From assembly GCA_964406075.1 (NCBI GenBank), contig CAYOQI010000001.1, forward strand, positions 197,015 through 261,014: 64,000 nucleotides of DNA. Direction: 5' to 3'. This document shows, piece after piece, positions 18,895-58,878 of this stretch. The first letter of the stretch is position 1. The number at the start of each line of letters is the position of its first letter. The DNA comes from an uncultured Pseudomonadales bacterium. GTDB taxonomy: Bacteria; Patescibacteriota; Microgenomatia; UBA1400; PJMF01. Under the pieces are notes generated by a model. That model ran no database searches, was not told the DNA's origin, and saw only the letters and a program-made list of their open reading frames with translations. Made by a program: the position numbers and the translations under genes.

Positions 18895-19425
18895 ATGAAT
18901 AAAACAAAACTACTTGTTCCCGCACTGGCAGTGTTTATCACCGGAGGAGCTCTACTCGGAGCAACGGGAGCGTACGCTCAGGGGAATGGAACGGCCACAT
19001 ACCGCCCAATTGCCCAGAAGATCGCTGACAAATTCGGACTCAAAGTAGAAGACGTCCAATCCGTCTTTGACGAAGAGAGAGCTTCGCATCAAGCTGAATT
19101 CAAACAAAAATATGAGGATCGACTCACGACCGCAGTGACGGAGGGCAAGATCACCGAAGCCCAAAAGCAACTCATCATCCAGAAACATACAGAGATGCAA
19201 ACAAAGATGAAAGAGAACTTGGAAGCTTGGAAAAATTTATCATCTGAAGAAAGGAAAACCAAAATGGAAACCGAACGTCAAGAACTCGAAACTTGGGCAG
19301 AACAAAACGGCATTGACATGAAATATGTTATGCCAAGAATGTTTAAGTTTGAGAAACATGGCGGATTCAGGGGTGAAAGAGGAGATAAAGAGGAGATGAT
19401 GTGGAATAAAAAAATAGCTGAATAA
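18895..19425 (+). CDS. secreted helical protein, function unknown
   Basis: Signal peptide ...GATGAYAQG. Lys/Glu-rich helical body. Strong SD AAAGGAGGG 5 nt upstream of the ATG. Confidence 0.6.
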   Translation: MNKTKLLVPALAVFITGGALLGATGAYAQGNGTATYRPIAQKIADKFGLKVEDVQSVFDEERASHQAEFKQKYEDRLTTAVTEGKITEAQKQLIIQKHTEMQTKMKENLEAWKNLSSEERKTKMETERQELETWAEQNGIDMKYVMPRMFKFEKHGGFRGERGDKEEMMWNKKIAE

Positions 19426-19453: not shown

Positions 19454-19512
19454 CCCCACCTCTCGTGTCTGCCAAAGGCAGACTCGAGTTCCTCCCCAGT
19501 AAATGGGGAGGG
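19454..19512 (+). repeat. R2-family structured repeat, the only plus-strand copy
   Basis: CCCCACCTCTC, then GTCTGCC-AAA-GGCAGAC, then CCTCCCC-AGTAAAT-GGGGAGG. Its box and terminal hairpin are near-identical to the copy at 55772-55831. Confidence 0.7.
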
Positions 19513-19554
19513 ATTCCGGCTGAGTTCGGGACAAGAGACCTAGAGACAAGTACT

Positions 19555-19587
19555 GGACACTTTCATATATTGAAGTGTCCGGTTTTG
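19555..19587 (+). terminator. intrinsic terminator
   Basis: GGACACTT / AAGTGTCC stem followed by GGTTTTG. Confidence 0.6.
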
Positions 19588-19681
19588 TATCAGGAGGACG
19601 ATCAATTGAAAAATCACAGAAATATCCTATAATATCGGCAGTGTTCGATTTTCACCCGGAATACCCGGGAAGGAAAAACAG

Positions 19682-37144: not shown

Positions 37145-39136
37145 TCCCGCACCACCTCCACCACCGCCTCCTCCTCCGCCACCACCACCGGATGAACCGC
37201 CGGAAGAGCTAACACCTGATGCTCCGTAACCGGATGAAACTGAAGTGGATAATGAAGAAAAGGCATCTGAAATTCCAGAAAAAGCTGACGAAAAATTCGC
37301 TGATCCCATACCACTAGAACCTGAGTTCACTCCACTCCAATGTGCCATGACCAAAGCTTGATCAGCTTGAGAAAATTTGACTGGAAACTCCGACAATGCT
37401 TTCGCAGAAATTCCAAGCAGAGTTCCGTACACCAAATACTTTTCCCACAGAATGACAGAATCAATTGGGTACTCTTTTGTCTTTGCATACTCTTTCATAT
37501 GTTTTTTAAACGCTTCCCATTTTGAAGCTTCTGTCGCACCTTCGACTGTTTTTTTATGACTACTTGCTAAGAAAATAATTTCGATAATAAAATAAAGTGC
37601 ATTCAATGCGATGGCGATTACAGCCAAGACAATCACCCAAGCTTGAGTGGAATTAATAATCCAAGTGAAAAGTACCCACCACAAAATCACTTCAATAATG
37701 CCAAAGATAAATATCCACTGCACTCCAGCTGCCGCTTTTTGTGCAGCAATATCAAACAATTTTTGATCACCATTCATCTTCATGGCTTGCTTTTCAAATG
37801 ACTTGAAAAATGCATACGTGCTTGTTTTATGAGCTTTGCAGTATTTCACAATATCGTCTAGCTCAATTCCTTGAACTGATCCTTCTACCGAAGCAAATTC
37901 TTTTTTCCCAACTGAATGAAGAAAATTTTGAATTTTCTCATCGATAGAGTTTAACTTTTCATGCTTGTCCCACGAAGCTTCAGCGAAGTGGGAACCATGT
38001 TTTCCTTCAACTAAAGCATAAGCATATTTTCGAGATAAAAATCCTTTTTTATCCTGGCTTCGAACCAATCGGAATACTTTTTTTTGAACCAAACGCAGTA
38101 CTCCCGCCGTAAATGACTTTGCAGTTAGCGTTTCACTACTATTTAGGAGCTGTTCCACTTGCATCGGATGCAGATCACTTGGTGGTTCCCACAATCGACC
38201 TGACAGGTTAACAGCCGGGACAACAGGATCCTTGCCATATTTCATGAAGTTTCTGTACCGCTTGATAAATACCCAGGTAGAAAAGGCAATTGCCGCACCA
38301 ACCAATATTCCAAAAAAAGTTTGCTGGTTTTTGGTGGAAGCAATAAATTTGTTTTCCTGATTAATAATATCTTGGCGTGAATGTGTGCCGGCTACCCCTG
38401 AATCAACAAGCTCTTTCGCAAAAATGATTCGTCCTTCCAGGAACTTTCCACTCGATAGTCGTGGAGATGTAAAGGTCACTGTTTGAGCATCAGGGATGGC
38501 CACAACACCATTCAGCGGTCCATGCATCCAGGCTTGGATATCATCATTCTGAACAGGTTGAGGTAATGAAACTTGAACACGAATGTTTTGCTGCTCAGTT
38601 TCCCATCGATCACCGATAAATTTCCAATACAGTTCGGCCACATCTTGATGTTGAGTGACTGCATTCTCAATAGTATAGGAAAGATCAAACGTACGTTGCT
38701 CGTTGTACACGTCATAAAACCACTTGATGTAGTACGAGTCATGTTGCTCATCTACATAAAATGATCCAGCTCTCTCTTCTATTCCAAGATTATCTGCCGA
38801 TTGATCAGTTAATCGGTAGCACTCATCTTCATCCTTGCCCCTCGTAGCTTTAGCGAAGTGGGGACAAATCTTAAAGTTCGATAACTCATACTGTTCAGTT
38901 CGACCTGAGCCATATGTTTCATTCGCATTTTTTAAAATTTCTAAATAGGCAAAGGAAAAACTTCCTTCAAAAGCATAGGTTCTTGACTCAGTTACATCCA
39001 TTGATCCATCAGGATTTATTTTTGCATCAATCGTAACCTGAGGAATTGAAAAGGACTTATCCGCCAAAACTCGTTTAGGCAAAAAAGAAGCGAGTAAAAA
39101 GAAAACGAAGGTAGCAAAAAATGCTTTTTTGAACAT
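37142..39136 (-). CDS. DUF2207 domain membrane protein with a poly-Gly C-terminus
   Basis: Signal peptide, large N-terminal ectodomain, TM cluster and a tail SSGGSSGGGGGGGGGGGGGAG typical of DUF2207. Confidence 0.75.
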   Translation of the reverse strand: MFKKAFFATFVFFLLASFLPKRVLADKSFSIPQVTIDAKINPDGSMDVTESRTYAFEGSFSFAYLEILKNANETYGSGRTEQYELSNFKICPHFAKATRGKDEDECYRLTDQSADNLGIEERAGSFYVDEQHDSYYIKWFYDVYNEQRTFDLSYTIENAVTQHQDVAELYWKFIGDRWETEQQNIRVQVSLPQPVQNDDIQAWMHGPLNGVVAIPDAQTVTFTSPRLSSGKFLEGRIIFAKELVDSGVAGTHSRQDIINQENKFIASTKNQQTFFGILVGAAIAFSTWVFIKRYRNFMKYGKDPVVPAVNLSGRLWEPPSDLHPMQVEQLLNSSETLTAKSFTAGVLRLVQKKVFRLVRSQDKKGFLSRKYAYALVEGKHGSHFAEASWDKHEKLNSIDEKIQNFLHSVGKKEFASVEGSVQGIELDDIVKYCKAHKTSTYAFFKSFEKQAMKMNGDQKLFDIAAQKAAAGVQWIFIFGIIEVILWWVLFTWIINSTQAWVIVLAVIAIALNALYFIIEIIFLASSHKKTVEGATEASKWEAFKKHMKEYAKTKEYPIDSVILWEKYLVYGTLLGISAKALSEFPVKFSQADQALVMAHWSGVNSGSSGMGSANFSSAFSGISDAFSSLSTSVSSGYGASGVSSSGGSSGGGGGGGGGGGGGAG

Positions 39137-39161
39137 ATCTATACTTTCTAACTGTTAACTG

Positions 39162-39191
39162 TCCGCCCAAGGCGGATCCGCCTTGGGCGGA
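39162..39191. repeat. Perfect 30-bp GC-rich palindrome TCCGCCCAAGGCGGATCCGCCTTGGGCGGA
   Basis: Verified base by base as its own reverse complement. It can also fold as two tandem 6-bp hairpins. It lies 26 nt upstream of the ATG at 39136. Confidence 0.8.
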
Positions 39192-39240
39192 ACTAACTGA
39201 TAACTATGTTTAGTATATTCCTCTTTCTGCCGTTCTCAAC

Positions 39241-39286
39241 TTCCTCCAACACCTTTCCCCTCTTAGAGGGGAAATACAAAGGGGAG
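39241..39286. repeat. Possible degenerate R2-like element
   Basis: TTCCCCTC-tta-GAGGGGAA hairpin followed by AAAGGGGAG. It lacks the second hairpin, so assignment is uncertain. Confidence 0.35.
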
Positions 39287-39371
39287 TTTAAAATAGAATG
39301 AACAATTTAACAATTTAATTTTTATCTACTGTTTCTTCCCTCTTCACTCTTGCATCGGTTATGATTAATGC

Positions 39372-39845
39372 ATGAACAACACTGACTTTCTTGCAGTTTT
39401 CAAAAATCCATTATTTCTTCTTCTCGCTTGTTTAACTCTCTGTACTGTTTTCATCGCCGGAGTCGTCGTAGGAGGGAAACAATTTGAAACAGATAAAGTT
39501 GTCCCGCCAACTTATGAATACATGGATGATACTCTTCCTCCAGATGCCTATCCGGATAAATCACCACAACCTCCGTATCCTCCTCAAGAATCAATGGTGC
39601 CTTCCAGTAATAATGGCTGCGTTCCGGCAGGCTGTAGTGGAGAAATTTGTGCTGATGAAAATAGTAGTAATACAGTTATTTCAACTTGTGAATTACAGCC
39701 TGAATATGTTTGCTACCAACAATATGGAAAATGTGAACGAAATAAATACGGCGATTGCGCTTGGACAACCAATACTGAATTTGAACAATGCTACCAGAAA
39801 GAAACTGGAAGAATTTATTTAGAGAATCCTCAAGCTTTGTATTAA
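39372..39845 (+). CDS. secreted cysteine-rich protein (eight-Cys cluster C-terminal domain)
   Basis: N-terminal TM/signal segment, Pro-rich linker, then CVPAGCSGEIC...C...C...C...C...C (8 Cys). Confidence 0.55.
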   Translation: MNNTDFLAVFKNPLFLLLACLTLCTVFIAGVVVGGKQFETDKVVPPTYEYMDDTLPPDAYPDKSPQPPYPPQESMVPSSNNGCVPAGCSGEICADENSSNTVISTCELQPEYVCYQQYGKCERNKYGDCAWTTNTEFEQCYQKETGRIYLENPQALY

Positions 39846-50373: not shown

Positions 50374-50541
50374 TTAGTTTTCTTGCAACTCTAAATAGCG
50401 AATATTCAATCGATTATATCTTTTTTCAAGCTCTTGAAACTTGGTCAGGTAGTATCCAGCAAACAGTGAAAGTATAAAAATAATCACAACAAGAAATCGA
50501 ATTATCCACAAAAAATGTATCGGCTGTGTATTTTTTTCCAT
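50374..50541 (-). CDS. 55-aa membrane/coiled-coil protein (below the track cutoff)
   Basis: My translation is MEKNTQPIHFLWIIRFLVVIIFILSLFAGYYLTKFQELEKRYNRLNIRYLELQEN. Its TAA stop lies 2 nt before the rfbB ATG. An R2 element lies directly upstream. Confidence 0.4.
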   Translation of the reverse strand: MEKNTQPIHFLWIIRFLVVIIFILSLFAGYYLTKFQELEKRYNRLNIRYLELQEN

Positions 50542-50547
50542 GTGTTT

Positions 50548-50605
50548 TCTCTCCTCGAGGAGAGATCCTCAAGACGACCGAAAGAAGTCATGAGGAAGAG
50601 AGGTG
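50548..50605 (-). repeat. R2-family structured repeat (SD-sequestering hairpin)
   Basis: Minus strand reads CACCTCTCTTCCTCA..TGAGGA-TCTCTCC-TCGA-GGAGAGA-AAACAC-ATG(50541). Confidence 0.7.
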
Positions 50606-50657
50606 TATATTCAGCAATTTAATAATTTAGCAATGTTACAAATACTATCTAACAAAT

Positions 50658-50699
50658 GACCTTTTCCCTTGCACCTTTAACCTCGAACCTGTCCTTATT
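50658..50699 (-). repeat. Heptad array; plus strand reads GACCTTT TCCCTTG CACCTTT AACCTCG AACCTGT CCTTATT
   Basis: Read directly. It ends on the stop codon of the GT2 gene. Confidence 0.7.
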
Positions 50700-51885
50700 T
50701 TTTCTTTCTCCAAATGATTTTTGAATATGCAAAAAAGTTCCAAAACATTCCAGCCAAAATACCAACCACAGCGTAGAAGAAGCCCGTATCAAACTCGATA
50801 CCGATAATTGGAAGTGTGATTAAAGTAAAAAGTCCAATAAATTTTTCTCCCCCAGTGCTAATCAAGAACTGAATGAGTAACGAACCAAGTGAAGTTAAAT
50901 TGAACTGTAAAAATTTGGCTGGAACTTGGACAGCTGTTAACTTTCGATCAGCAAATGTCCATAAATTACTAAAGATAAAATTGGAAATAATCGCCGTTTC
51001 AATACTCAGTAACGTCGCCTCTTGAAAAGCCGACAGAAAGGATACATGATTCACCGGAATTAAATAACGAAAAAGATGAAGAGAACTCAATTGTATTGCT
51101 GCACCAAGCCCACCAACCATGACAAATTTGAATGCTCTCTTCTTCATGAGTTCTTGAATTCGCACTTTGAGAATGTACATAAGTGTATTTTTGATATATT
51201 CAGTACCTAGTTTTGATTCACCAAAGGTTCGATCCACAAATTTGAACGGCACCTCTGCTATTTTGAAACCTCGGCGTACTGCTTTATGTAAAAATCCGAT
51301 TTGGAAAGTATACCCTGAAAATTGATCTGTGTTCATCTCACTTTTCACGGCTTCATATACTTCTTTCTTAATCGCTCGATACCCACTTGTCCAATCATGA
51401 ATTGAAAAATCGGTCAGCACCACGGTAATAATGATATTACCAACTACGCTCAAAAACTTTCGATGCGCTCCCCAATCATCCGGAATTCCACCACCTTCAA
51501 TATACCGCGATCCGAGTACAAAATCATATCCCTGATCAATTTTTTCTAAAAATTGAGGGATTTTGCGCGGGTCATGGGATAAATCAGCATCAAACTCGAA
51601 GATAACATCAGCATCCATATTGTTAAATGCTTCAGCCATTCCCTTTAAATATGCTCCACCTAATCCAGATTTTTTTGGATTAATGAGTAAAGAAACATAC
51701 GGGAGTTTTTTTGAAATTTTTCTGACCACATCTGCGGTTCCATCAGGCGAAGTATCGTCAACGATCAAGACTTCCAGTTTCCAGTCTTTTGATAAAGTGG
51801 AACGCACAGTATCCACAGCCAGGAGAGTCTGCTCGATATTCTCAGCTTCGTTGTACGTAGGGATGATTATGACGGCTTTGGACAT
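50695..51885 (-). CDS. GT2 polyprenol-phosphate glycosyltransferase fused to a GtrA-like membrane domain
   Basis: IIIPTYNEAENI, VDDTSPDGT and DADLSHDP (Dpm1/PPM synthase-like). The C-terminal 4-TM region is GtrA-like. Confidence 0.85.
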   Translation of the reverse strand: MSKAVIIIPTYNEAENIEQTLLAVDTVRSTLSKDWKLEVLIVDDTSPDGTADVVRKISKKLPYVSLLINPKKSGLGGAYLKGMAEAFNNMDADVIFEFDADLSHDPRKIPQFLEKIDQGYDFVLGSRYIEGGGIPDDWGAHRKFLSVVGNIIITVVLTDFSIHDWTSGYRAIKKEVYEAVKSEMNTDQFSGYTFQIGFLHKAVRRGFKIAEVPFKFVDRTFGESKLGTEYIKNTLMYILKVRIQELMKKRAFKFVMVGGLGAAIQLSSLHLFRYLIPVNHVSFLSAFQEATLLSIETAIISNFIFSNLWTFADRKLTAVQVPAKFLQFNLTSLGSLLIQFLISTGGEKFIGLFTLITLPIIGIEFDTGFFYAVVGILAGMFWNFFAYSKIIWRKKK

Positions 51886-52045
51886 GTATTTTTTTTATCT
51901 AAAACATTCACTCTTGTGCTTGTGTGACATACGGACAGGAAAGCCCAATAAACGAGGGGAGATAGAATATACTATCTCTTACATGTGTAAGTATTTCTCA
52001 GTAAATTCGTAAGAAAATTCTTACACATCCCGATTGATTTGAAAA

Positions 52046-53011
52046 TTACACCCGCTCATTTTCCAATTCTGCCTCAACCATCAACGTCACTAATTCCGCA
52101 AAACCAACAGTTGGCTTCCAACCCAGTTTTTGTTGAGCCTTCGAAGCATCACCAACCAATAAATCTACTTCAGCTGGGCGATCATACTTCGGATTGTGTT
52201 TATAAATTGATTTCCAATCATCGATACCGACAGCTTTACACGCTAACTCTAAATACTCTTGAACCGAGTGCGTTTCACCAGTAGCGATGACAAAATCTTC
52301 GGGTGTATCTTGCTGAAGCATTAGCCACATCGCTTCCACATAATCCTTGGCATATCCCCAGTCTCGTTTAGCGTCAAGATTTCCAAGCTCTACCACATCC
52401 TGCTTCCCAAGTTTTATTCTGGCGACAGCATTTGCGATTTTTCTAGTGACAAACTCTAAACCTCGACGTGGGGATTCATGATTAAAAAGAATGCCGGACA
52501 CAGCAAACATGTCAAATGACTCACGATAATTTACCGTAATCCAATGTCCATACACTTTTGCAACACCATATGGAGAGCGAGGATAAAAAGGTGTGGTTTC
52601 TTTTTGTGGTGTTTCTTGGACTTTTCCAAACATTTCTGAACTCGAAGCTTGATAAAATTTTGCCTTTGGATGCGCGTGTTTGACTGCTTCCAACATCCGT
52701 GTCACTCCTATCGCAGTAAACTCACCGGTCAAGACCGGTTGTTCCCAACTTGCCTGAACAAAAGATTGTGCGGCTAAGTTGTAGACTTCATCAGGTTTGA
52801 TTTTTTGAATGGCATTCGTAATGGAATGTTGATCGATCAAATCGCCTGAGATGAGCTCAATTTCATGAATAATATGTTCAATACGGGCAAAGTTTTGTGT
52901 ACTCGTCCGACGAGTCAAACCATAGACTTTGTATCCTTTTTGGAGAAGTAATTCCGCCAAATATGATCCATCTTGGCCGGTAATACCGGCAATAAATGCT
53001 GATTTAGACAT
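52046..53011 (-). CDS. gmd: GDP-mannose 4,6-dehydratase
   Basis: [31 protein letters not shown] and NHESPRRG. Confidence 0.9.
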
Positions 53012-53069
53012 TGTTTTCCTCTTTTTTAGATTAATGTTGTATATTTTTTAGTTTAAAAACTGTAACTTG

Positions 53070-54038
53070 TTAAGCCTTCCCTCGCCACTCTTCTAGCACT
53101 AACTTTAAACTTTCCTCGAGCGGTATTTCTGGTTTCCATCCTAACTTTTTTATCTTGTCACTGTTTGAAACCAGTGGAGAAGTATCGGGTCTCAATCGCG
53201 ATTCATCCGTCTTTACATCGATACTCACCTTCGCATGAGCAATCATCTTATCAAGCAATGATCGCATTGTGTAGCCTTGCCCACTGCCCACGTTATAGAC
53301 TTCACCTCGAACCCCTTTTTCCATCAAGAGCACATACGCTTTGACCACATCTCTCACATCACTCAAATCTCTAATTGGTTCCAAATTCCCGACTTTAACT
53401 TCCTTTTGTTCTCCTCGCTCCACCGCAACAATTTGACTTGCAAACGCTGGAATTGCAAAGTCAGCCGTTTGTCCCAACCCAATGTGGTTAAAAGGTCGCA
53501 CTCGAACAATATCCAACCCATATGAATTTGCATATGCGAGACCCAACAAATCTTGAGTAACTTTGGAAACTGCATACGGCGAAAGTGGTTGCAATGGATC
53601 TTCTTCCGAAAAAGCTATTCCTTCTGACTGGCTCGCCGTTTTTATTCCATATTCGGTTCCACTTCCTATAACTAAGACTCGAGCTTGTGGTGAGTGTTCT
53701 CGAACAGCTTCAAGCACATTCAGTTGAAGAGTAAGGTTATTGTGAAAAACTTCAGCCGCCCGTTCAAAACTCGCACCAACTATTGAGATCGCCGCCAGAT
53801 GAAATATCCAATTCGGTTGAATAGCTTTAATCAGCTCAAACACCGCCGAATGATTTGTCAGATCAAGACTCATGTATCGAACTTTTTCAGAAAAAGAAAT
53901 GTTTTTAGGAGCTGTATGTGAAAAACCCGTCGCCACAATTTGACAATCAAATGTTTTATCAAGCAACTCGATTAAATGACGACCAGCAAATCCAGTTCCC
54001 CCGGTCACTAAAATTGTTTTTGGCTGTGAAGCATCCAT
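53070..54038 (-). CDS. NAD-dependent epimerase/dehydratase, GDP-4-dehydro-6-deoxy-D-mannose reductase (Rmd)-like
   Basis: ILVTGGTGFAGRHL, SPYAVSK and RPFNHIGLGQ. Adjacent to gmd. Start placed at MDASQPK (54038), because the track start at 54110 lies inside the R2 repeat. Confidence 0.7.
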   Translation of the reverse strand: MDASQPKTILVTGGTGFAGRHLIELLDKTFDCQIVATGFSHTAPKNISFSEKVRYMSLDLTNHSAVFELIKAIQPNWIFHLAAISIVGASFERAAEVFHNNLTLQLNVLEAVREHSPQARVLVIGSGTEYGIKTASQSEGIAFSEEDPLQPLSPYAVSKVTQDLLGLAYANSYGLDIVRVRPFNHIGLGQTADFAIPAFASQIVAVERGEQKEVKVGNLEPIRDLSDVRDVVKAYVLLMEKGVRGEVYNVGSGQGYTMRSLLDKMIAHAKVSIDVKTDESRLRPDTSPLVSNSDKIKKLGWKPEIPLEESLKLVLEEWRGKA

Positions 54039-54047
54039 AAAAGTATG

Positions 54048-54106
54048 GCTTCTCTCCTTTGGGAGAGAAGCCTGGTAATCCAGGCAGTGAGGGGAGAATG
54101 ATCTCC
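54048..54106 (-). repeat. R2-family structured repeat (SD-sequestering hairpin)
   Basis: Minus strand reads GGAGATCATTCTCC-CCTCACTG-CCTGG-atta-CCAGG-CTTCTCTCC-CAA-AGGAGAGAAG-CCATACTTTT-ATG(54038). Confidence 0.75.
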
Positions 54107-54123
54107 GCACTTATTGCCATTGT

Positions 54124-54165
54124 TTCAACTGTCTCTAACCTCTAATCTCAATTCTCTTACTTGAT
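54124..54165 (-). repeat. Heptad array; plus strand reads TTCAACT GTCTCTA ACCTCTA ATCTCAA TTCTCTT ACTTGAT
   Basis: Read directly, in the divergent intergenic region before trmD. Confidence 0.6.
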
Positions 54166-54173
54166 GATAAAAT
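54165..54173 (+). promoter_or_regulatory. Candidate extended -10 (TGATAAAAT) that would give a leaderless trmD mRNA
   Basis: TGaTAAAAT ends 6 nt before the ATG at 54180. No SD. Confidence 0.3.
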
Positions 54174-54179
54174 CTTACC

Positions 54180-54917
54180 ATGCGTATAACCATTTTGACA
54201 CTTTTTCCTGAGATGTTCACTGGAGCTTTTTCACACTCCATGCTCAAACGTGCCCAGGATAAAAAATTGCATGATACTCCTCCACTTGAAATAGGAATCA
54301 TTAATATTCGAGATTTTGCTACAGATAAACATCAAACGACGGATGACCGTCCATACGGTGGTGGAGCCGGCATGGTAATGAAAGTCGAACCAATCGATCT
54401 TGCACTCCAGTATGTTCTCTCCCCCTCTAGGGGGAGAACTCAGGCGAGTTATCTGAAAGAAACTCGCCTGATAAGAGAGGGGGAAAGCTCCAAAAGTCAA
54501 ATAACTGCCTCGAAATCCTCAACCAAAATAATCCTCACCTCCGCCAAAGGGAAACTCTTTGGGCAACAAACAGCACAAGTGTATAGTCAGCTTGATCACT
54601 TAGTGATTATCTGTGGTCATTACGAAGGAGTCGATCAACGAGTTGCTGATCATTTAGTTGATGAAGAAGTTCGAATTGGAGATTATGTTTTAACAGGTGG
54701 TGAACCTGCCGCAGCAGTGATAACGGATGCCGTGGCTCGTTTACTTCCAGGAGTTTTAGGAAATGACGTCAGCGCGACTCACGAATCTCACTCTGAACCA
54801 GGATATTTAGAACATCCTCAATACACTCGTCCCGAAAAATATAACGATTGGGAAGTGCCTAAAGTCCTTTTACAAGGGAATCACAAAGAGATTGATGACT
54901 GGAGAAGTAAAAAATAA
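54180..54917 (+). CDS. trmD: tRNA (guanine37-N1)-methyltransferase carrying an in-frame insertion of about 24 codons derived from an R2 repeat
   Basis: ILTLFPEMF, DDRPYGGGAGMVM, CGHYEGVDQRV, IGDYVLTGGE and HPQYTRP. There are extra residues between PIDLAL and KIILTSAKG. Confidence 0.9.
   Translation: MRITILTLFPEMFTGAFSHSMLKRAQDKKLHDTPPLEIGIINIRDFATDKHQTTDDRPYGGGAGMVMKVEPIDLALQYVLSPSRGRTQASYLKETRLIREGESSKSQITASKSSTKIILTSAKGKLFGQQTAQVYSQLDHLVIICGHYEGVDQRVADHLVDEEVRIGDYVLTGGEPAAAVITDAVARLLPGVLGNDVSATHESHSEPGYLEHPQYTRPEKYNDWEVPKVLLQGNHKEIDDWRSKK
54416..54485 (-). repeat. R2-family structured repeat located inside the trmD coding sequence (antisense orientation)
   Basis: Plus strand reads TCTCCCCC-tcta-GGGGGAGA-ACTCAG-GCGAGTT-(11 nt)-AACTCGC-CTGATAAGA-GAGGGGGAA. 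The architecture matches the copies at 54048 and 58827. Confidence 0.75.
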
Positions 54918-54925
54918 AGCGTAAT

Positions 54926-55759
54926 TTATACAATTACTTTCTTCAATTTTTCTACATTCAACGCAGTATTTTTTTGGTATGGTCGCTTCGCAGTTCTCAA
55001 ATATTCTTTGAGACTTCCTGGGCGTACTTCTCCCGCTAATCCAAATTGTTCTTTTACTTTGAGTGCAAATTGATAATCAGTCGTCACTGGATCTGTGGAC
55101 GCATGATATAAACCAGTGATTTTTTCTTTGATAACAAAATTAAAAGTATCGGCCAGTTTTTCTATCTGAGTTGGAGTAAAACTGTGATCAATAAACATGG
55201 GTTGGAGTTTATCTTCTTCCAAAAGTTTCTTTATCCGATGCATGACATCCATTTTGGGAAAATCATCTTGACGATAGGGAAATGCGATCCGAAGAATCGT
55301 GTACTCTGCACCTGACTTCTCCACTTCTTCTTCTGCCCAAGCTTTTGTCTGCCCATACCACTCAATAGGATTCACAGAATCTTCCTCCGTGTACAATCCT
55401 TTTTTCTCTCCATCAAATACAAAATCAGTCGAAATATGAATAAGATGTTTGCCAAAATCTTTGGCAGCTTGAGCCATGTTACGTGTTCCCAGGACATTTA
55501 CGGCATACGCAATCCCAGATTTGTCTCCAGTCTCGGCAAAGGCTGCATTTACATCTGTGAACGCTGCAAGGTGGATGATTGTGTTGGCTGTACTTTTTTC
55601 AATTATTTTTTTGATTTGTTTTTCATCAGTAATATCAATACCCGTCGCTCGATCTAGATTGGTAAACTCATACGTATCTGTATACAGATCAACAAACTTT
55701 GAACCAACTAAACCAGATAAACCCGTCCCAATAATTTCCACTTTTTTATTTTTTGTCAT
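54926..55759 (-). CDS. dTDP-4-dehydrorhamnose reductase (RmlD)-like SDR
   Basis: IIHLAAFTDVNAA, HISTDFVFDG and YGQTKAWAE. Confidence 0.7.
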   Translation of the reverse strand: MTKNKKVEIIGTGLSGLVGSKFVDLYTDTYEFTNLDRATGIDITDEKQIKKIIEKSTANTIIHLAAFTDVNAAFAETGDKSGIAYAVNVLGTRNMAQAAKDFGKHLIHISTDFVFDGEKKGLYTEEDSVNPIEWYGQTKAWAEEEVEKSGAEYTILRIAFPYRQDDFPKMDVMHRIKKLLEEDKLQPMFIDHSFTPTQIEKLADTFNFVIKEKITGLYHASTDPVTTDYQFALKVKEQFGLAGEVRPGSLKEYLRTAKRPYQKNTALNVEKLKKVIV

Positions 55760-55771
55760 ACCTATTTAATA

Positions 55772-55831
55772 CCTCCCCATTTATTAGGGAGGACCTCGAA
55801 TCGAATGATAATGAGATTCAGAGAGGTGGGG
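55772..55831 (-). repeat. R2-family structured repeat (SD-sequestering hairpin)
   Basis: Minus strand reads CCCCACCTCTC-TGAATC..GATTCGAG-GT-CCTCCC-taataaat-GGGGAGG-(12 nt)-ATG(55759). Confidence 0.7.
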
Positions 55832-55952
55832 TTACTCGTTTTTTTCTCACCACTCTTCCCCGTCCACCGGCAGGAAACCTCTAACCTCTCGCAACGAAGT
55901 ATAGTAATTTTATAAACAAAACAAAAGGGGAAAGATCGATCCATTTATCGGA

Positions 55953-56210
55953 TTAAAACGTCAGGAGGAAAATTATTGTCCCTGCGAGTAGTGCTGCAAA
56001 AAGATACTCTTTTACAATGGCCGTGGTGAGGTGACTTGACTTGACGTGAGTTAAAATTCCCCAGAAAAAATACATGGCTGATAATGATCCCGCCACAATT
56101 CTCATTCCCGGTCTCGACGGCCACAAGGACAGAAATGCAATCACATGTCCAACCAGTAACACAATCAGAATGGCATATGCAAATTTATGTCGAGATATTT
56201 CATTAAACAT
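55953..56210 (-). CDS. small membrane protein (85 aa, 3 TM)
   Basis: Hydrophobicity pattern. Last gene of the co-directional fibre-locus string. Confidence 0.45.
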   Translation of the reverse strand: MFNEISRHKFAYAILIVLLVGHVIAFLSLWPSRPGMRIVAGSLSAMYFFWGILTHVKSSHLTTAIVKEYLFAALLAGTIIFLLTF

Positions 56211-56259
56211 GAGTTCCTTTTACTTAAGGCTTATTTCAACAAATTAGTTCACTACTTCA

Positions 56260-57342
56260 CTACGCTCCCACTACTCCACCTTTAAAGAAAATAATGAGAA
56301 ACAGGATCGTGATAAAAAGAGCAATGTGAGCAAAATTTTTCCCTACAAACCGAATCGTATTCAATTTTTCGATCACCATCGTATCGTAAATCAAGACGGC
56401 AATGACCAACAGCACGAGTGCCAAAAAGACCGCTTTTGAAAGGTGGAGAGGTGAAAAAAGTGGTGGACGTTCGATGTTTTGAATATACTCGACACTTTCT
56501 CTAAAAAGTTCTGGCGTGGCCAATACTTCAGGCTGTGCTTCCTCACTATTTTCTGTCATCACGGGCGGTTCCTGATCTTGACCGACAACTTCGTCGACTT
56601 GATTGATCACATCTTCTACTGCTTGCTCAGGATTTACCATTTCCCCAGTGACTTCATCAATAGCAGCTAAGGCTTGGGAATTTGCAACTGGAGCAGTCGT
56701 AGCTACAGGTTGAGGTGTTTTTTGCGGAGTGATCGCTCCCGTTCTACGAGTCGCGGCTGTACTTCCAAACATTTGAACTACCAACGTAGTCTCTGTTCCA
56801 TTGAGCACTCCATCGACCACCGCAATTCCAATTTCTTTATATCGAGTGTTCACAATATTTTCTTTATGGGTTGGCGAATTCATCCATGCTCTCATCATGT
56901 CTTCCGATTCCATAAAATCACGCGCCAGGTTTTCACCTGCAATAGTGTAACGATAGCCTGCCGTCTTCATGAACTGCCAAGGCGTTTTCCCTTTCGGCGA
57001 ATAGTGTGCCCAGTATTGATCAGCAAACATATCTCTGGCTTTGGCCAGTGCGGCATCACTCAGTTGTTTGTTGACGACTAATTCTCCCGTTCCAGCTTTG
57101 ACCCGTTCTTTATTGGTCAGCTCTACCACTTGAGTAGGAGTAATCGATGAAGAGTAGCCTAAAATTGTTCCTTGTTCAGACGACACACCACGAAGAATTC
57201 CGACTCCAGATCGAAAAATAACGACCAACAATAACAGAACTAGAAAACCTTCTGGATGCAAAATCCTCGGCCGATGATTATTCGAATGCCGAGGATGGAA
57301 AAGATGGGCAAATGTTTCAAAAACTTGCATGAATATATCCAT
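56260..57342 (-). CDS. CAP/SCP (YkwD-like) domain protein flanked by N- and C-terminal TM segments
   Basis: LTNKERVKAG...ARDMFADQYWAHYSP...AGENLA...AWMNSPTHKENI matches YkwD-type CAP domains. Start placed at MDIFMQ, because the track start at 57393 uses the CAT of an R1 repeat. Confidence 0.8.
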   Translation of the reverse strand: MDIFMQVFETFAHLFHPRHSNNHRPRILHPEGFLVLLLLVVIFRSGVGILRGVSSEQGTILGYSSSITPTQVVELTNKERVKAGTGELVVNKQLSDAALAKARDMFADQYWAHYSPKGKTPWQFMKTAGYRYTIAGENLARDFMESEDMMRAWMNSPTHKENIVNTRYKEIGIAVVDGVLNGTETTLVVQMFGSTAATRRTGAITPQKTPQPVATTAPVANSQALAAIDEVTGEMVNPEQAVEDVINQVDEVVGQDQEPPVMTENSEEAQPEVLATPELFRESVEYIQNIERPPLFSPLHLSKAVFLALVLLVIAVLIYDTMVIEKLNTIRFVGKNFAHIALFITILFLIIFFKGGVVGA

Positions 57343-57387
57343 TATGCTGAATTTTTTATCTGAAAACAAGGTATTTTTACAGTGTAA

Positions 57388-57420
57388 TGTCATCCCGACC
57401 GAAGTGGAGGGATCCCTGTC
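57388..57420 (+). repeat. R1-family hairpin repeat, short form
   Basis: TGTCATCCCGACCGAAGTGGAGGGATCCCTGTC. Confidence 0.65.
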
Positions 57421-57476
57421 ACGAGGTACACACAGACATTAGAAAACATTGAAGCAAAATAATCTGAAGATTTTAT

Positions 57477-58820
57477 TTAATTAATGCGAAATCTACGAAC
57501 TAACCCACGCCCCAACCAGCTCCCAATTCCTACTCCTCCAGCCAATAACCAATACCACTGACATAACCAGTGTAACCATGAGCCTGGTTCACAATCACAG
57601 CTACTTAACGTATAGAAAAAGTAAATGGAAGTCAGAATGAAAATAAAATCGGCACCAAGATGGAATGAATGTATTTTTTTTCGGAGTAATACATGATTTG
57701 CACCGTGACCAATTGCTTGTAGTAATAAAATAATGAGCGCCAGCCACATTCCATCCTGAGCACACTCCATCACTTCAGTCGCACTTGTTCCTAAAATAAA
57801 CGGAATAACTCCTGACAGAAATGGTTCTGGAGTGGGTGAGGGTTCGATTACATCTCCTAGTACTTCCCCATCGCTAAATCCAAGTGGAGCAGTAAAGGCA
57901 CCTGCAATAGCCGGTTGTCCTGTGGTCGCAACTTCATTCGATCGAGGTCCCGGTGCACATCCATTTATACCGAGTACTTGAAAGTAGTATTGAGTATTTG
58001 GAGTTAAGCCTGAAACTGTATAACTGGTCACATTGCCAACACTATTATTTCCAAATAAATAAACACCTGGTTGGACGCCAAAATTAATAGCATATGTCGT
58101 GACTGGTGAAACTGCTGACCATGCCAACGTCACTTGTCCATTCGCATTCACAATTCCCGGCACAAAAAGTTGAGGGGCAGAACTGGGTAGTTGATCGGTA
58201 CACGGTAGAGCAAAAGCATCCGTTGTCGTTCCGGCTACTGAGTTGAATGAGGTCGATGAAGTGGTTGAAATAGGCGTAGGTGTTGGAGGAGTCGGAAATG
58301 GTGTTAATTGAACTGCTACTTCAACATCAAATACGGTCTGTTTACCTTGAAATTGATTTCCCGAACTTGGATCAAATGTCGCAATGAACGCATATGTTTG
58401 AGTTTGTTGAGCAAGCAGGGGAGAGTAGGAGAGTAAGCTGGAAGAATTTAGTAAACTTTCCAAACTCTGAGAACTCATCACCACTTCCCCACTTTCTGTG
58501 TCTTTTCGAATTTCTATAAAAATTGCTGATGCCAAAGATTGATCGGTGACACCACTTGAACCCATCGCTTGCCAAGCCGGATACAAGGTCTCATTGGTCA
58601 TATTCGTAATAGCGAGGTGTTGAACAAATCTATCACCAGGTAATGTGTTCGTTTCTGAGAAAAGTTGGGCATTTGATGGAGTGATCACACAATCATCAAT
58701 TTCATTTGAACCAAAACAGATGACAGACAAATCTTGGCTTTGTGAGGATGCAAAAATCGGCTTGGTGAATCCAATGTAAAAAATAAAAAGGAAAATGAAG
58801 AAGGAAAAAAATTTAGGCAT
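57477..58820 (-). CDS. secreted TasA-like domain + Pro/Thr linker + fibronectin type III domain + Cys-rich 3-TM C-terminal anchor
   Basis: Signal peptide ...KPIFASS. LPGDRFVQHLAITN and GNQFQGKQTVFDVEVAVQ match the TasA/camelysin hallmarks PGD and QG...F.F.A.Q. FN3 signature VTLAWSAV...YTVSGLTPNTQYYFQV. The hydrophobic C-terminus contains CDCEPG/WLC. Confidence 0.65.
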   Translation of the reverse strand: MPKFFSFFIFLFIFYIGFTKPIFASSQSQDLSVICFGSNEIDDCVITPSNAQLFSETNTLPGDRFVQHLAITNMTNETLYPAWQAMGSSGVTDQSLASAIFIEIRKDTESGEVVMSSQSLESLLNSSSLLSYSPLLAQQTQTYAFIATFDPSSGNQFQGKQTVFDVEVAVQLTPFPTPPTPTPISTTSSTSFNSVAGTTTDAFALPCTDQLPSSAPQLFVPGIVNANGQVTLAWSAVSPVTTYAINFGVQPGVYLFGNNSVGNVTSYTVSGLTPNTQYYFQVLGINGCAPGPRSNEVATTGQPAIAGAFTAPLGFSDGEVLGDVIEPSPTPEPFLSGVIPFILGTSATEVMECAQDGMWLALIILLLQAIGHGANHVLLRKKIHSFHLGADFIFILTSIYFFYTLSSCDCEPGSWLHWLCQWYWLLAGGVGIGSWLGRGLVRRFRIN

Positions 58821-58826
58821 GGATCA

Positions 58827-58878
58827 TCTCTCCTTTGGGAGAGAACTCAAGCCCGATAGGGCCTGAGAGTGAGGGGCG
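58827..58878 (-). repeat. R2-family structured repeat (SD-sequestering hairpin)
   Basis: Minus strand reads CGCCCCTCACTCTCAG-GCCC-tatc-GGGC-TTGAGT-TCTCTCC-CAA-AGGAGAGA-TGATCC-ATG(58820). Confidence 0.75.

Follow-up and report, generated by a model that had tools for sequence, protein, structure and literature searches.

A dispersed hairpin repeat, probably of the potential-intrastrand-triplex kind, in a Patescibacteria genome

Results

Seven copies of one element

In the window analysed here, a 64-kb stretch of a Patescibacteria genome, seven dispersed copies of one GC-rich element (R2) were found. The regular expression CTCYC-N3-12-GRGAG returned exactly six clear copies, and a scan for perfect pyrimidine/purine hairpins gave the seventh. 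The initial annotation had listed seven copies, one of them (39241-39286) with doubt. All seven were confirmed, against about 0.2 expected by chance, and the doubtful one, at 39254-39286, proved to be a genuine copy in minus orientation that lacks the middle hairpin. The window holds eight GC-rich pyrimidine/purine hairpin loci, seven of which have a matching upstream box, while 40 dinucleotide-preserving shuffles gave means of 1.15 such loci and 0.17 with a matching box. No true R2 copies were found in a metagenome scan, and our sample is the seven copies of this one window.

In every copy (33-66 bp), a connector joins a C/T box to a perfect pyrimidine/purine hairpin (hairpin 2), with gaps of 0-2 nt between box and connector and between connector and pyrimidine (Y) arm. 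The connector is a hairpin of variable sequence, except in copy c7, where it is 3 nt long. This is the three-part structure proposed earlier, and in the folds the middle hairpin is paired in each copy that has one.

Copy c1 (19454-19511, plus strand) has the box CCCCACC (19454-19460), a connector hairpin (19462-19488) and the arms CCTCCCC (Y, 19491-19497) and GGGGAGG (R, 19505-19511). It lies 29 nt 3' of the stop codon of the ORF at 18895-19425, with no start codon downstream, and is followed by an intrinsic-terminator-like hairpin at about 19553-19588. The remaining copies are in minus orientation. The minimal copy c7 (39254-39286) reads CTCCCCTTT-GTA-TTTCCCCTC-TAA-GAGGGGAAA and is located in the divergent intergenic region 39136-39372. 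Copy c6 (50548-50603) has the box CCTCTCTT (50596-50603), a connector hairpin (50567-50595) and the arms TCTCTCC (50559-50565) and GGAGAGA (50548-50554). Copy c4 (54049-54096), in the divergent region common to an Rmd-like gene and trmD, is made up of the box CCCCTCACT (about 54086-54096), the connector hairpin GCCTGG-ATTA-CCAGGC (54070-54085) and the arms CTTCTCTCC (54062-54070) and GGAGAGAAG (54049-54057). Copy c3 (54418-54483) has the box CCCCCTCTCTT (54473-54483), a connector hairpin (54441-54470) and the arms TCTCCCCC (54430-54437) and GGGGGAGA (54418-54425). In c2 (55772-55831) the box CCCCACC (55825-55831) and a connector hairpin (55795-55823) are followed by the arms CCTCCC (55787-55792) and GGGAGG (55772-55777). 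Copy c5 (58827-58874), with the box CCTCACT (58868-58874), a connector hairpin (58846-58867) and the arms TCTCTCC (58838-58844) and GGAGAGA (58827-58833), occupies the 87-nt spacer that separates two co-directional genes.

Five of the seven copies are inside 8.3 kb (P ~0.02 under uniform placement), where they sit in a glycan/surface locus. Box and hairpin 2 are identical within the pairs c1/c2 and c4/c5, yet the connector hairpins are unrelated, so simple copy-and-paste is not a sufficient explanation.

The box is a mirror copy of the hairpin arm

The box was found to be a mirror (parallel) copy of the Y (5') arm and not a direct copy. Parallel matches in the seven copies are 7/7, 6/6, 8/8, 8/9, 7/7, 7/7 and 9/9, and a reversed-order control scored 1-2 lower in each of them. 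Among 15 elements from several phyla, mirror order exceeded reversed order in 13, with two ties; in tracts of such low complexity the contrast is modest for each element, and the elements are phylogenetically non-independent. An arm matched its own box at 0.94 and the boxes of other elements at 0.84 (permutation P = 5e-5).

On the G-rich strand, which is the plus strand in six copies, the Y arm comes first, followed by the loop, the R arm, the connector and the reverse-Hoogsteen tract, and the triplets are all canonical purine-motif ones (G.G-C, A.A-T or T.A-T); the opposite strand carries the pyrimidine-motif order. By the class definitions of PMC4666352, c7 has a class II intrastrand-triplex layout with stems of 9 nt and loops of 3 nt, its plus strand being Y TTTCCCCTC, TTA, R GAGGGGAAA, TAC and reverse-Hoogsteen AAAGGGGAG. 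A mirror box with a hairpin is the signature of intrastrand-triplex repeats such as BoxC/PIT/TMECO of E. coli. Judging from its sequence, R2 may be able to form the predicted triplex.

Four copies stand directly before start codons

The initial annotation placed four hairpins 6-12 nt before an ATG, and the distances measured from the end of the R arm are indeed 6 nt for c6 (ATG 50541, a conserved 55-aa membrane ORF upstream of rfbB), 10 nt for c4 (ATG 54038, the Rmd-like gene), 12 nt for c2 (ATG 55759, an RmlD-like gene) and 6 nt for c5 (ATG 58820, an fn3-domain surface protein). These four ATGs are real starts, since the Pfam domains of the Rmd-like and RmlD-like proteins start about 10 residues past the assigned ATG, the fn3 protein has a signal peptide at its N-terminus, and the 55-aa ORF is also conserved in a syntenic relative (L058). 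Enrichment 5' of start codons was borne out in the window, where four of the six intergenic copies abut one in the same orientation; a rough binomial estimate of our own is about 1e-3, beyond chance. The excess is real and its cause unexplained.

Gene leaders in this genome are A-rich and Shine-Dalgarno (SD) use is weak. Of the genes, 30% have GGAG, GAGG or AGGA upstream (background 10%), and most have no SD. Only three SD cores of at least 6 nt occur in the window, two of them R2-borne. The tract that the earlier claim held to be sequestered is the strongest SD-like one at these leaders and is paired in the hairpin. Because SD use is weak here, being the only SD-like tract does not make it a required SD in a largely SD-independent genome.

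The copies are insertions of this lineage

L058 has the same gene order and zero R2 copies. Its spacers at the orthologous sites are shorter or absent, its fn3 gene overlapping the upstream gene. R2 was not found in the orthologous leaders of L058 or of a second relative (L057). By these comparisons, the copies were shown to have been inserted within this lineage.

Copy c3 lies inside trmD (54180-54917, plus strand; tRNA m1G37 methyltransferase), antisense and in frame, as an insertion of about 27 aa. It is translated as residues ~79-102 (LSPSRGRTQASYLKETRLIREGES). The alignment of TrmD to solved structures is interrupted at residues 77/114, and there the structures have only 6 residues. The insert is missing from most trmD homologues, and the trmD of L057 has only a decayed R2 relic. 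Copy c3 was shown to be tolerated as an in-frame loop insertion. Read on the plus strand, c3 is simply trmD mRNA.

A distant relative in Rfam

No R2 copy reached an Rfam gathering score, which agrees with the first view that the element was not a known family. That view missed a weak relative, RF01762 (whalefall-1), which gave sub-threshold matches to three copies at 27.2, 21.6 and 17.2 bits (cut-off 37). The match to c5 (27.2 bits, E 9e-4) and that to c4 (21.6 bits) are on the plus strand; the three share one full-length register on the strand opposite to R2, and c1-c3 had no whalefall-1 match at all in this comparison. In the alignment, R2 and the whalefall-1 seed sequences have a common layout on opposite strands, in which a hairpin UCUCYCC-loop-GGRGAGA is followed by a second, variable hairpin and then by a purine-rich tail that closes with GAGG. 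In the two whalefall-1 subtypes, too, tail and hairpin arm co-vary as mirror copies. The CUUG loop, CAGA linker and GAGGAC end of whalefall-1 are not features of R2. Whalefall-1 appears, by these resemblances, to be a distant relative of the same kind, and its model gave a weak match (17 bits, E 0.11) to a BoxC pair of E. coli. UUCG and CUUG tetraloops occur in relatives.

Bona fide whalefall-1 copies (38-75 bits) were found on Balneolaceae-type contigs (L037, L071-L078) as inverted pairs adjoining DUF559 nuclease genes, within about 150 nt in all loci examined and in at least three genomic contexts. Their proximity to DUF559 hints at a mobile origin. In contrast, the 64-kb window has neither inverted pairs nor a DUF559 gene, and no target-site duplications were seen at the R2 copies. 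The Bacteroidota family members are oriented opposite to R2 relative to the flanking genes.

Discussion

We consider R2 to be, with fair probability, a lineage-specific dispersed repeat of the potential-intrastrand-triplex kind, similar to BoxC/PIT/TMECO. BoxC/TMECO has the form CCCTCNCCC-N3-6-GGGNGAGGG-N3-GGGNGAGGG, occurs in inverted pairs of two subtypes, and is commoner upstream than downstream of ORFs (Hoyne et al. 2000; Holder et al. 2015, PMC4666352). Triplex folding of BoxC was seen in vitro and not in vivo. In both BoxC and R2, one strand carries in succession a pyrimidine arm, a purine arm and a G-rich tract that runs antiparallel to the latter, with A faced by T or A (GGGTGAGGG in BoxC, GTGAGG in R2). 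Both are GC-rich against a lower-GC background and have many dispersed, mainly intergenic copies, whose presence differs among related genomes and which are often upstream of ORFs, with neighbours of no particular functional class. Copy c7, with its 9-nt stems and two 3-nt loops, even fits the ITxF search definition.

However, six of the seven R2 copies have a structured connector of 16-30 nt in loop 2. Since the loop limits were 1-6 nt in ITxF and 0-10 nt in Hoyne et al. 2000, published searches would miss these six. The R2 stems are 6-9 nt long with sequences other than that of BoxC, R2 is strongly biased to 6-12 nt before ATG, and its host is a Patescibacteria genome. All TMECO copies of MG1655 are intergenic, while one R2 copy lies in coding sequence, and the inverted pairs of BoxC were not seen for R2 in the window. 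What sets R2 apart from BoxC is that loop 2 is usually enlarged to a stable hairpin; its sequence is arbitrary, and it serves as connector only.

The earlier alternative of a REP-like hairpin repeat is supported in kind, and such a repeat may, as was proposed, supply ribosome-binding sites. By analogy, R2 may be likened to Rickettsia palindromic elements (RPE) and REP/MITE-like repeats as a short structured repeat spreading within one lineage, with orthologous sites differing in presence or absence and with one in-frame insertion tolerated by an essential protein, here that of trmD, in a surface loop. R2 differs in having no visible terminal inverted repeats or target duplications. To our knowledge, none of RPE, REP and classical MITEs has a mirror-repeat (triplex) design.

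R2 could instead act as a host-beneficial RNA of the REP type, its transcribed hairpins guarding mRNA ends against exonucleases or marking processing sites, and so tuning how strongly neighbouring genes are expressed relative to each other. We regard this as unlikely, and equally the form in which two stable hairpins would perhaps be joined by a pyrimidine-motif RNA triplex. The hairpins are very stable, c5, c6 and c2 lie between co-directional genes, c1 stands at a 3' end, ahead of a terminator, and the tetraloops of the relatives favour a role at the RNA level. Against it, R2 is missing at the orthologous sites of relatives, and the copy in trmD is antisense. The C+.G-C triplets also require low pH. 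Pyrimidine-motif triplexes are possible in RNA (introduction of PMC4666352), but PIT elements in E. coli have no promoter or terminator activity (PMC4666352).

The initial annotation favoured a translational switch. On such a reading, hairpin 2 would hide GGAG until it is opened by a signal, be it temperature, a ligand, a protein or pH, and the box would serve as alternative partner. We judge such a switch improbable, and likewise the co-regulation of surface-glycan and surface-protein genes that it entails. The four sense-oriented copies ahead of real starts, the grouping of five copies in the glycan/surface locus and the scarcity of SD cores outside R2 are in its favour, as are G-U pairs, which for c1, c2, c5 and c6 number one per copy in this orientation, the complement having none, and the minimum-free-energy fold of c3, which pairs the box with the purine tract. 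Like RNA thermometers (ROSE, fourU) and riboswitch platforms, R2 has an SD-like tract in a hairpin just before a start codon. However, hairpin 2 has no mismatches, with dG37 of -9.8 to -16.5 kcal/mol, and is predicted by the nearest-neighbour model to stay folded to 80-90 C, which is too stable for a thermosensor. The proposed role of the C/U box as a second anti-SD partner failed, because a mirror copy of the 5' arm is no Watson-Crick competitor for the purine arm. Three of the seven copies are not before a start (c3 antisense in trmD, c1 after a stop codon, c7 115 nt away), the element is not conserved at orthologous genes, and the Bacteroidota members face the other way. With weak SD use and no R2 in L058, a thermosensor or ligand switch is not supported.

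The least probable reading is that of independent plus-strand small RNA genes antisense to minus-strand ribosome-binding regions, as in the Rfam view of whalefall-1: Weinberg et al. 2010 (PMC2864571) rated whalefall-1 as certain RNA and not cis-regulatory, the Rfam matches fall on the plus strand, and whale-fall seed contigs have a promoter-like TTGACA-17-TATAT before the type I motif, but the R2 plus-strand copies have no promoter-like site ahead of them, the promoter scan yielded no more sites than shuffles did, bit scores are under the gathering cut-off with c1-c3 unmatched, the plus strand of c3 is trmD coding message, and G-U pairs favour the opposite strand.

We therefore hold to a dispersed repeat, and consider it reasonably probable that R2 landed beside genes, and once inside one, and is no conserved translational switch. 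R2 would spread or persist as a selfish or neutral repeat that folds while DNA is single-stranded, and its spread may be nuclease-based, judging from the relatives that bracket DUF559 genes. GGAG in the purine arm would be a by-product of the polypurine requirement. The start adjacency and the glycan/surface clustering would also fit a role in expression. At 6-12 nt before ATG, R2 probably has a constitutive effect on translation and is not a regulated switch; the stable hairpin may damp translation, or R2 may offer an SD where SDs are scarce.

R2 forms a repeat family in the window

R2 is a GC-rich repeat of the window in which a C/T-rich box is followed by a connector, usually a variable hairpin, and by a second hairpin (hairpin 2) with a pyrimidine arm and a purine arm. 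A search with the pattern CTCYC-N3-12-GRGAG returned six loci in the window and no more, namely c1 on the plus strand (19454-19511) and c6 (50548-50603), c4 (54049-54096), c3 (54418-54483), c2 (55772-55831) and c5 (58827-58874) on the minus strand. A further scan, for perfect hairpins whose 5' arm consists of pyrimidines only, added c7 (39254-39286, minus strand), and the copy near 39241-39286 that the initial annotation had considered doubtful is thus genuine. Eight GC-rich hairpins of the R2 type were found in the window, seven of them with a matching upstream box, whereas 40 dinucleotide-preserving shuffles gave a mean of 1.15 such hairpins and 0.17 with a box. R2 is therefore a real repeat family, and the copies first reported are present. 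A relaxed descriptor search of the window for decayed R2 yielded zero copies beyond these seven, of which five fall inside 8.3 kb (P about 0.02).

The GC content of the window is about 40%. The arms of R2 read CCTCCCC, TCTCTCC, TCTCCCCC and TTTCCCCTC, and the middle hairpin folds in each copy possessing one, with connector loops of AAA, TATC, ATTA and longer. Copy c1 is located after a stop codon and before a terminator-like hairpin, with no ATG downstream. Elsewhere, a scan of viral contigs with TCTCTCCYMRAGGAGAGA gave 8 matches, all by chance and none with box and connector, and a metagenome scan with CCCCACCTCTC-N10-40-AAATGGGGAGG gave 9 loci with no true R2 among them. An exact 18-mer found 47 loci in a genome collection; most were chance matches, and the search also revealed relatives from Balneolaceae and, from Bacteroidota, short forms.

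Two other sequences were observed near R2 copies. A perfect 28-nt palindrome, CCGCCCAAGGCGGATCCGCCTTGGGCGG, lies at 39163-39190, 64 nt from c7, with which it shares a divergent intergenic region. The motif GAGGTTAGAG is found on the minus strand at 50675-50684, 54133-54149 (in tandem) and 55879-55888, 30-70 nt upstream of c6, c4 and c2, and if one mismatch is allowed it occurs 8 times in the window (2.9 expected). A larger composite element made of GAGGTTAGAG and R2 was rejected, since the upstream regions align only at GAGGTTAGAG.

Mirror symmetry between box and pyrimidine arm

In every copy, the box mirrors the pyrimidine arm: running 5' to 3' in parallel with the purine arm, it has a C facing every G of that arm, and a T or an A facing every A. 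With A or T allowed opposite A, the canonical triplets over the seven copies are 7/7, 6/6, 8/8, 8/9, 7/7, 7/7 and 9/9, and the reversed-order control was lower by 1-2 in every copy. The box stands 0-2 nt from the connector hairpin, which in turn stands 1-2 nt from the pyrimidine arm. In c7 the connector is reduced to GTA (CTCCCCTTT-GTA-TTTCCCCTC-TAA-GAGGGGAAA). Over 15 elements from several phyla, the arms were fitted better by their own boxes than by the boxes of others (0.94 vs 0.84, permutation P = 5e-5), a comparison to be read with the low complexity of the tracts and the relatedness of the 15 elements in mind; the mirror order exceeded the reversed order in 13 of the 15, with 2 ties. The box recurrently has A in place of T; on the G-rich complement this gives T opposite A, and all positions are then canonical triplets of the purine motif (G.G-C, A.A-T or T.A-T). 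R2 has the sequence design of intrastrand-triplex repeats, and a single strand of it would be predicted to fold into a hairpin plus a third strand.

The boxes and arms are identical between c1 and c2 and between c4 and c5, and the connectors of both pairs are unrelated. Long divergence under structural constraint and templated correction within quasi-palindromes are both possibilities.

R2 copies were inserted in the lineage of the window

The comparison locus L058, a syntenic 16.8-kb region from another genome, has the gene order rfbB, small ORF, GT2/GtrA, GMD, Rmd-like, trmD, RmlD-like, 85 aa, CAP and fn3, and contains zero R2 copies against seven in the window. The RmlD leader is 193 nt in the window and 107 nt in L058, and the Rmd/trmD spacer is 141 nt and 103 nt, respectively. 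Upstream of the fn3 gene, an 87-nt spacer is filled by c5 in the window, whereas in L058 this gene overlaps the upstream gene (ATGA).

Copy c3 is found inside the plus-strand trmD ORF, antisense to the orientation of R2 itself. The alignment of the window TrmD to solved TrmD structures is broken at query residues 77-114, where the structures have 6 residues; most TrmD homologues have a short linker at the insertion point, and the insert (LSPSRGRTQASYLKETRLIREGES...) is the translated R2 element. The nearest relatives of this TrmD (at most 69% identity) are annotated as Patescibacteria, Woesebacteria or Cerribacteria. At the same position in the trmD of L057, a second comparison locus, a decayed R2 relic was observed, with the box GCCCCTCTCTTATCA, a mismatched hairpin and the connector lost, and none of the intergenic copies of the window occurs in L057. 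These comparisons show that the R2 copies were inserted in the lineage of the window and that R2 is not conserved at the genes which it precedes.

The same TrmD surface loop (window 54411-54521, residues 78-113; L057:821-925; also the loci L069 and L070) is occupied in several relatives by unrelated insertions, 20-55 residues long, with low-complexity sequences of the 'IPNSKFQIPK' type among them. The trmD inserts of L069 and L070 were rejected as R2 relics, their sequences being unrelated. Since unrelated inserts occupy the same loop, the loop simply tolerates insertions, and it is a general hotspot of tolerated insertions within the clade.

A REP-like mobile hairpin had been the fallback explanation of the initial annotation, and in kind it fits. 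As in MITE and REP-RAYT families, R2 comprises multiple dispersed copies that are present at some orthologous sites and absent from others. In the flanks of the copies, inspection by eye revealed no target-site duplications. R2 probably persists as a selfish or neutral repeat.

Relation to whalefall-1 and to BoxC/PIT/TMECO

At the gathering thresholds of Rfam, only tRNA-Gln was found in the window. Below them, the model of whalefall-1 (RF01762; Weinberg et al. 2010, PMC2864571) was matched over its full length on the plus strand, opposite to R2 as read here, with 27.2 bits (58824-58876, E 9e-4), 21.6 bits (54048-54096) and 17.2 bits (50545-50597); c1, c2 and c3 were unreported even with E up to 10. 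No R2 copy attains the curated gathering score of 37 bits, and the positive control, the locus L037 of a Balneolaceae MAG, scored 75.3, 71.0 and 55.0 bits. The earlier statement that R2 matches no known Rfam family thus holds at the cut-off and has to be qualified by the three sub-threshold matches. The reverse complement has the whalefall-1 layout in six of the seven copies, the seventh being without a second hairpin. Unlike whalefall-1, whose second hairpin often has a CUUG tetraloop (Weinberg supplementary text, PMC2864571), R2 has neither CUUG nor CAAG in its connector loops. R2 is a distant relative of RF01762, not a member.

The 16 whalefall-1 seed sequences (PMC2864571 supplementary alignment) form two subtypes; the positions at which their purine tails differ mirror those at which the hairpin arms do. 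The subtypes stand inverted, 35-50 nt apart, on six whale-fall contigs, and the spacer has a TTGACA-17-TATAT promoter-like site directed toward the type I copy. With regard to an independent sRNA with its own promoter, 18 promoter-like sites were counted in the window, compared with 19.7 in shuffles, none of them positioned to drive plus-strand R2 copies, and only the hairpin of c4 with its T-rich tail was terminator-like.

Short forms, made of CCTCTCT-G, a 4-5 bp hairpin and then TCTCTCCCAAAGGAGAGA (TCTCTCC-CAAA-GGAGAGA), were observed in Sphingobacteriaceae, Flavobacteriales and Marixanthomonas, all of them intergenic (comparison loci L022:3631-3672, L026:2224-2265 and L056:1563-1604). Their scores against whalefall-1 were just 22-24 bits, and two of the three have a UUCG loop. 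The flanking genes are on the strand opposite to the element in L026 and L056 and convergent in L022.

Intrastrand-triplex repeats have been described as PIT elements (Hoyne et al. 2000) and as BoxC/TMECO, which Holder et al. 2015 (PMC4666352) described from E. coli and over 260 further genomes. TMECO has the consensus CCCTCNCCC-N3-6-GGGNGAGGG-N3-GGGNGAGGG, which is of the class II purine type and reads as a pyrimidine motif on the complementary strand (PMC4666352), and its triplex has been demonstrated in vitro, not in vivo. The criteria are consecutive Y, R and (reverse-)Hoogsteen blocks on one strand, stems of 6-15 nt and at most 1 mismatched triplet (PMC4666352), with loops of 1-6 nt in the ITxF search (PMC4666352) and 0-10 nt in that of Hoyne et al. 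These three blocks were found in all seven R2 copies, as known here from sequence alone, and at that level R2 is a variant of the known intrastrand-triplex class with a new feature, the structured connector in loop 2. Short loops (3 and 3 nt) are present only in the copy at 39254-39286; in the other six, loop 2 consists of a hairpin of 16-30 nt with 1-3 nt at the junction, beyond both published limits. Because published triplex finders exclude such a structured connector, the abundance of the class is probably underestimated.

The published elements, which R2 resembles, are GC-rich, dispersed and intergenic, and they are located upstream of ORFs, at 10-310 nt, more often than downstream of them. 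Their neighbor genes belong to no functional class, promoter and terminator activities are absent, and the elements are associated with local genome variability. R2 differs in its bias toward start codons, in one copy inside a coding sequence and in its arms, which depart from the TMECO consensus (compared with the E. coli pair in the locus L068). On that BoxC pair the whalefall-1 model gave a weak match (17 bits, E 0.11). BoxC/PIT/TMECO also has two subtypes in inverted pairs, a habit common to the whalefall-1 contigs and E. coli BoxC.

DUF559 genes beside whalefall-1

A DUF559 ORF of 132 aa (Pfam E 2.6e-30) in the Balneolaceae MAG has a whalefall-1 copy on either side, the two being inverted, and one of them encodes the last codons and stop of the ORF. 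At every locus examined, bona fide whalefall-1 (31-75 bits) was found no more than about 150 nt away from a small DUF559 (PF04480) nuclease gene, often as an inverted pair bracketing the gene with one copy over the stop codon (L037:4847-5570, L071:1256-1914, L072:1374-2041, L077:1025-1142, L073:1916-2079 and L078:1604-1689). The homologues examined have 80%, 63%, 62% and 61% identity and occupy at least three genomic contexts: beside polA, beside an aminotransferase and ParD, and between FtsX and an E1 dehydrogenase. This association is unmentioned in the original description of whalefall-1 (PMC2864571), and the literature searched had nothing relevant that links DUF559 to repeats or mobility.

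It is conceivable, though we consider it improbable, that R2, whalefall-1 and BoxC/PIT form one widespread superfamily that derives from, or ends, small selfish elements with a DUF559 (PD-(D/E)XK, Vsr-like) nuclease, that the ends are recognised as folded ssDNA, and that the polypurine arm was co-opted as an RBS module for surface-glycan and surface-protein genes. R2-type repeats would then be non-autonomous derivatives or end structures of DUF559 elements, and the co-option would explain the position of R2 shortly before four start codons. No DUF559 gene is present in the 64-kb window or in the CPR relatives.

R2 at start codons and the proposed translational switch

The initial annotation had placed four copies 6-12 nt before an ATG, which was borne out: the distances from the purine arm are 6 nt (ATG at 50541), 10 nt (54038), 12 nt (55759) and 6 nt (58820). 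These ATGs are credible starts, because Pfam matches of the Rmd-like and RmlD-like genes begin about 10 residues after the ATG, the N-terminus of the fn3 protein is a signal peptide, and the ORF starting at 50541 is conserved. The latter is a predicted membrane ORF of 55 aa (50374-50541, minus strand) between the GT2/GtrA gene and rfbB; it is kept in L058 (LSLxAGYYxTKxxELxKxYxxLNxxY) and so is probably a real small gene. The suggested enrichment directly 5' of start codons was also found within the window, with four of the six intergenic copies in sense orientation before an ATG (rough binomial about 1e-3, from per-site chances of 0.05-0.18).

The use of SD sequences by genes of the window appears weak. 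GGAG, GAGG or AGGA is found at -20 to -4 in 30% of 50 ATG genes, against a background of 10%; in the leaders of these genes G amounts to 16-30% at -17 to -8 and A to up to 40-60%. SD cores of at least 6 nt precede only three genes, two of these cores being provided by R2, and the L058 orthologues start without any strong SD. The adjacency to start codons is a concrete point needing explanation, and it possibly reflects preferred sites of insertion, a survivorship filter acting where intergenic regions are very short, or the exaptation of R2 as an RBS, the genome being mostly without SD. The GGAG of R2 is probably a by-product of the polypurine arm, and a copy abutting a start codon would probably change translation passively.

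The initial annotation had read R2 as a regulated translational switch that hides this GGAG, with the C/U box as a second anti-SD partner. An SD-sequestering switch is expected to be conserved in the leaders of orthologous genes, whereas R2 is absent upstream in L058 and L057; together with the stable hairpin 2, the mirror box and the weak SD use, this argues against the proposal. As a Watson-Crick competitor of the SD the box was rejected as well, being a parallel mirror of the pyrimidine arm; the exception is c3, where such pairing is also allowed because the purine tract is itself mirror-symmetric. Of the four leaders with R2, three have an unpaired AUG in the predicted folds. A thermosensor was rejected on the predicted stability of hairpin 2 alone (dG37 -9.8 to -16.5 kcal/mol in the nearest-neighbor model, still negative at 80°C and folded at 80-90°C), since an RNA thermometer or SD-sequestering switch has a marginally stable SD hairpin that opens in the physiological range, or an alternative partner, and R2, c3 aside, has neither.

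Implications

These results remove a false lead, in that R2 is no new riboswitch or thermometer class. Whalefall-1, for which a whale-fall metagenome had been the sole source since 2010, gains a structural rationale, its purine tail mirroring the hairpin arm, as well as a host (Balneolaceae-type contigs) and a recurrent neighbor, the DUF559 nuclease genes. The in-frame copy in trmD indicates that such repeats are tolerable inside essential genes of very small genomes, and triplex repeats of the BoxC/PIT type would extend to the Candidate Phyla Radiation.
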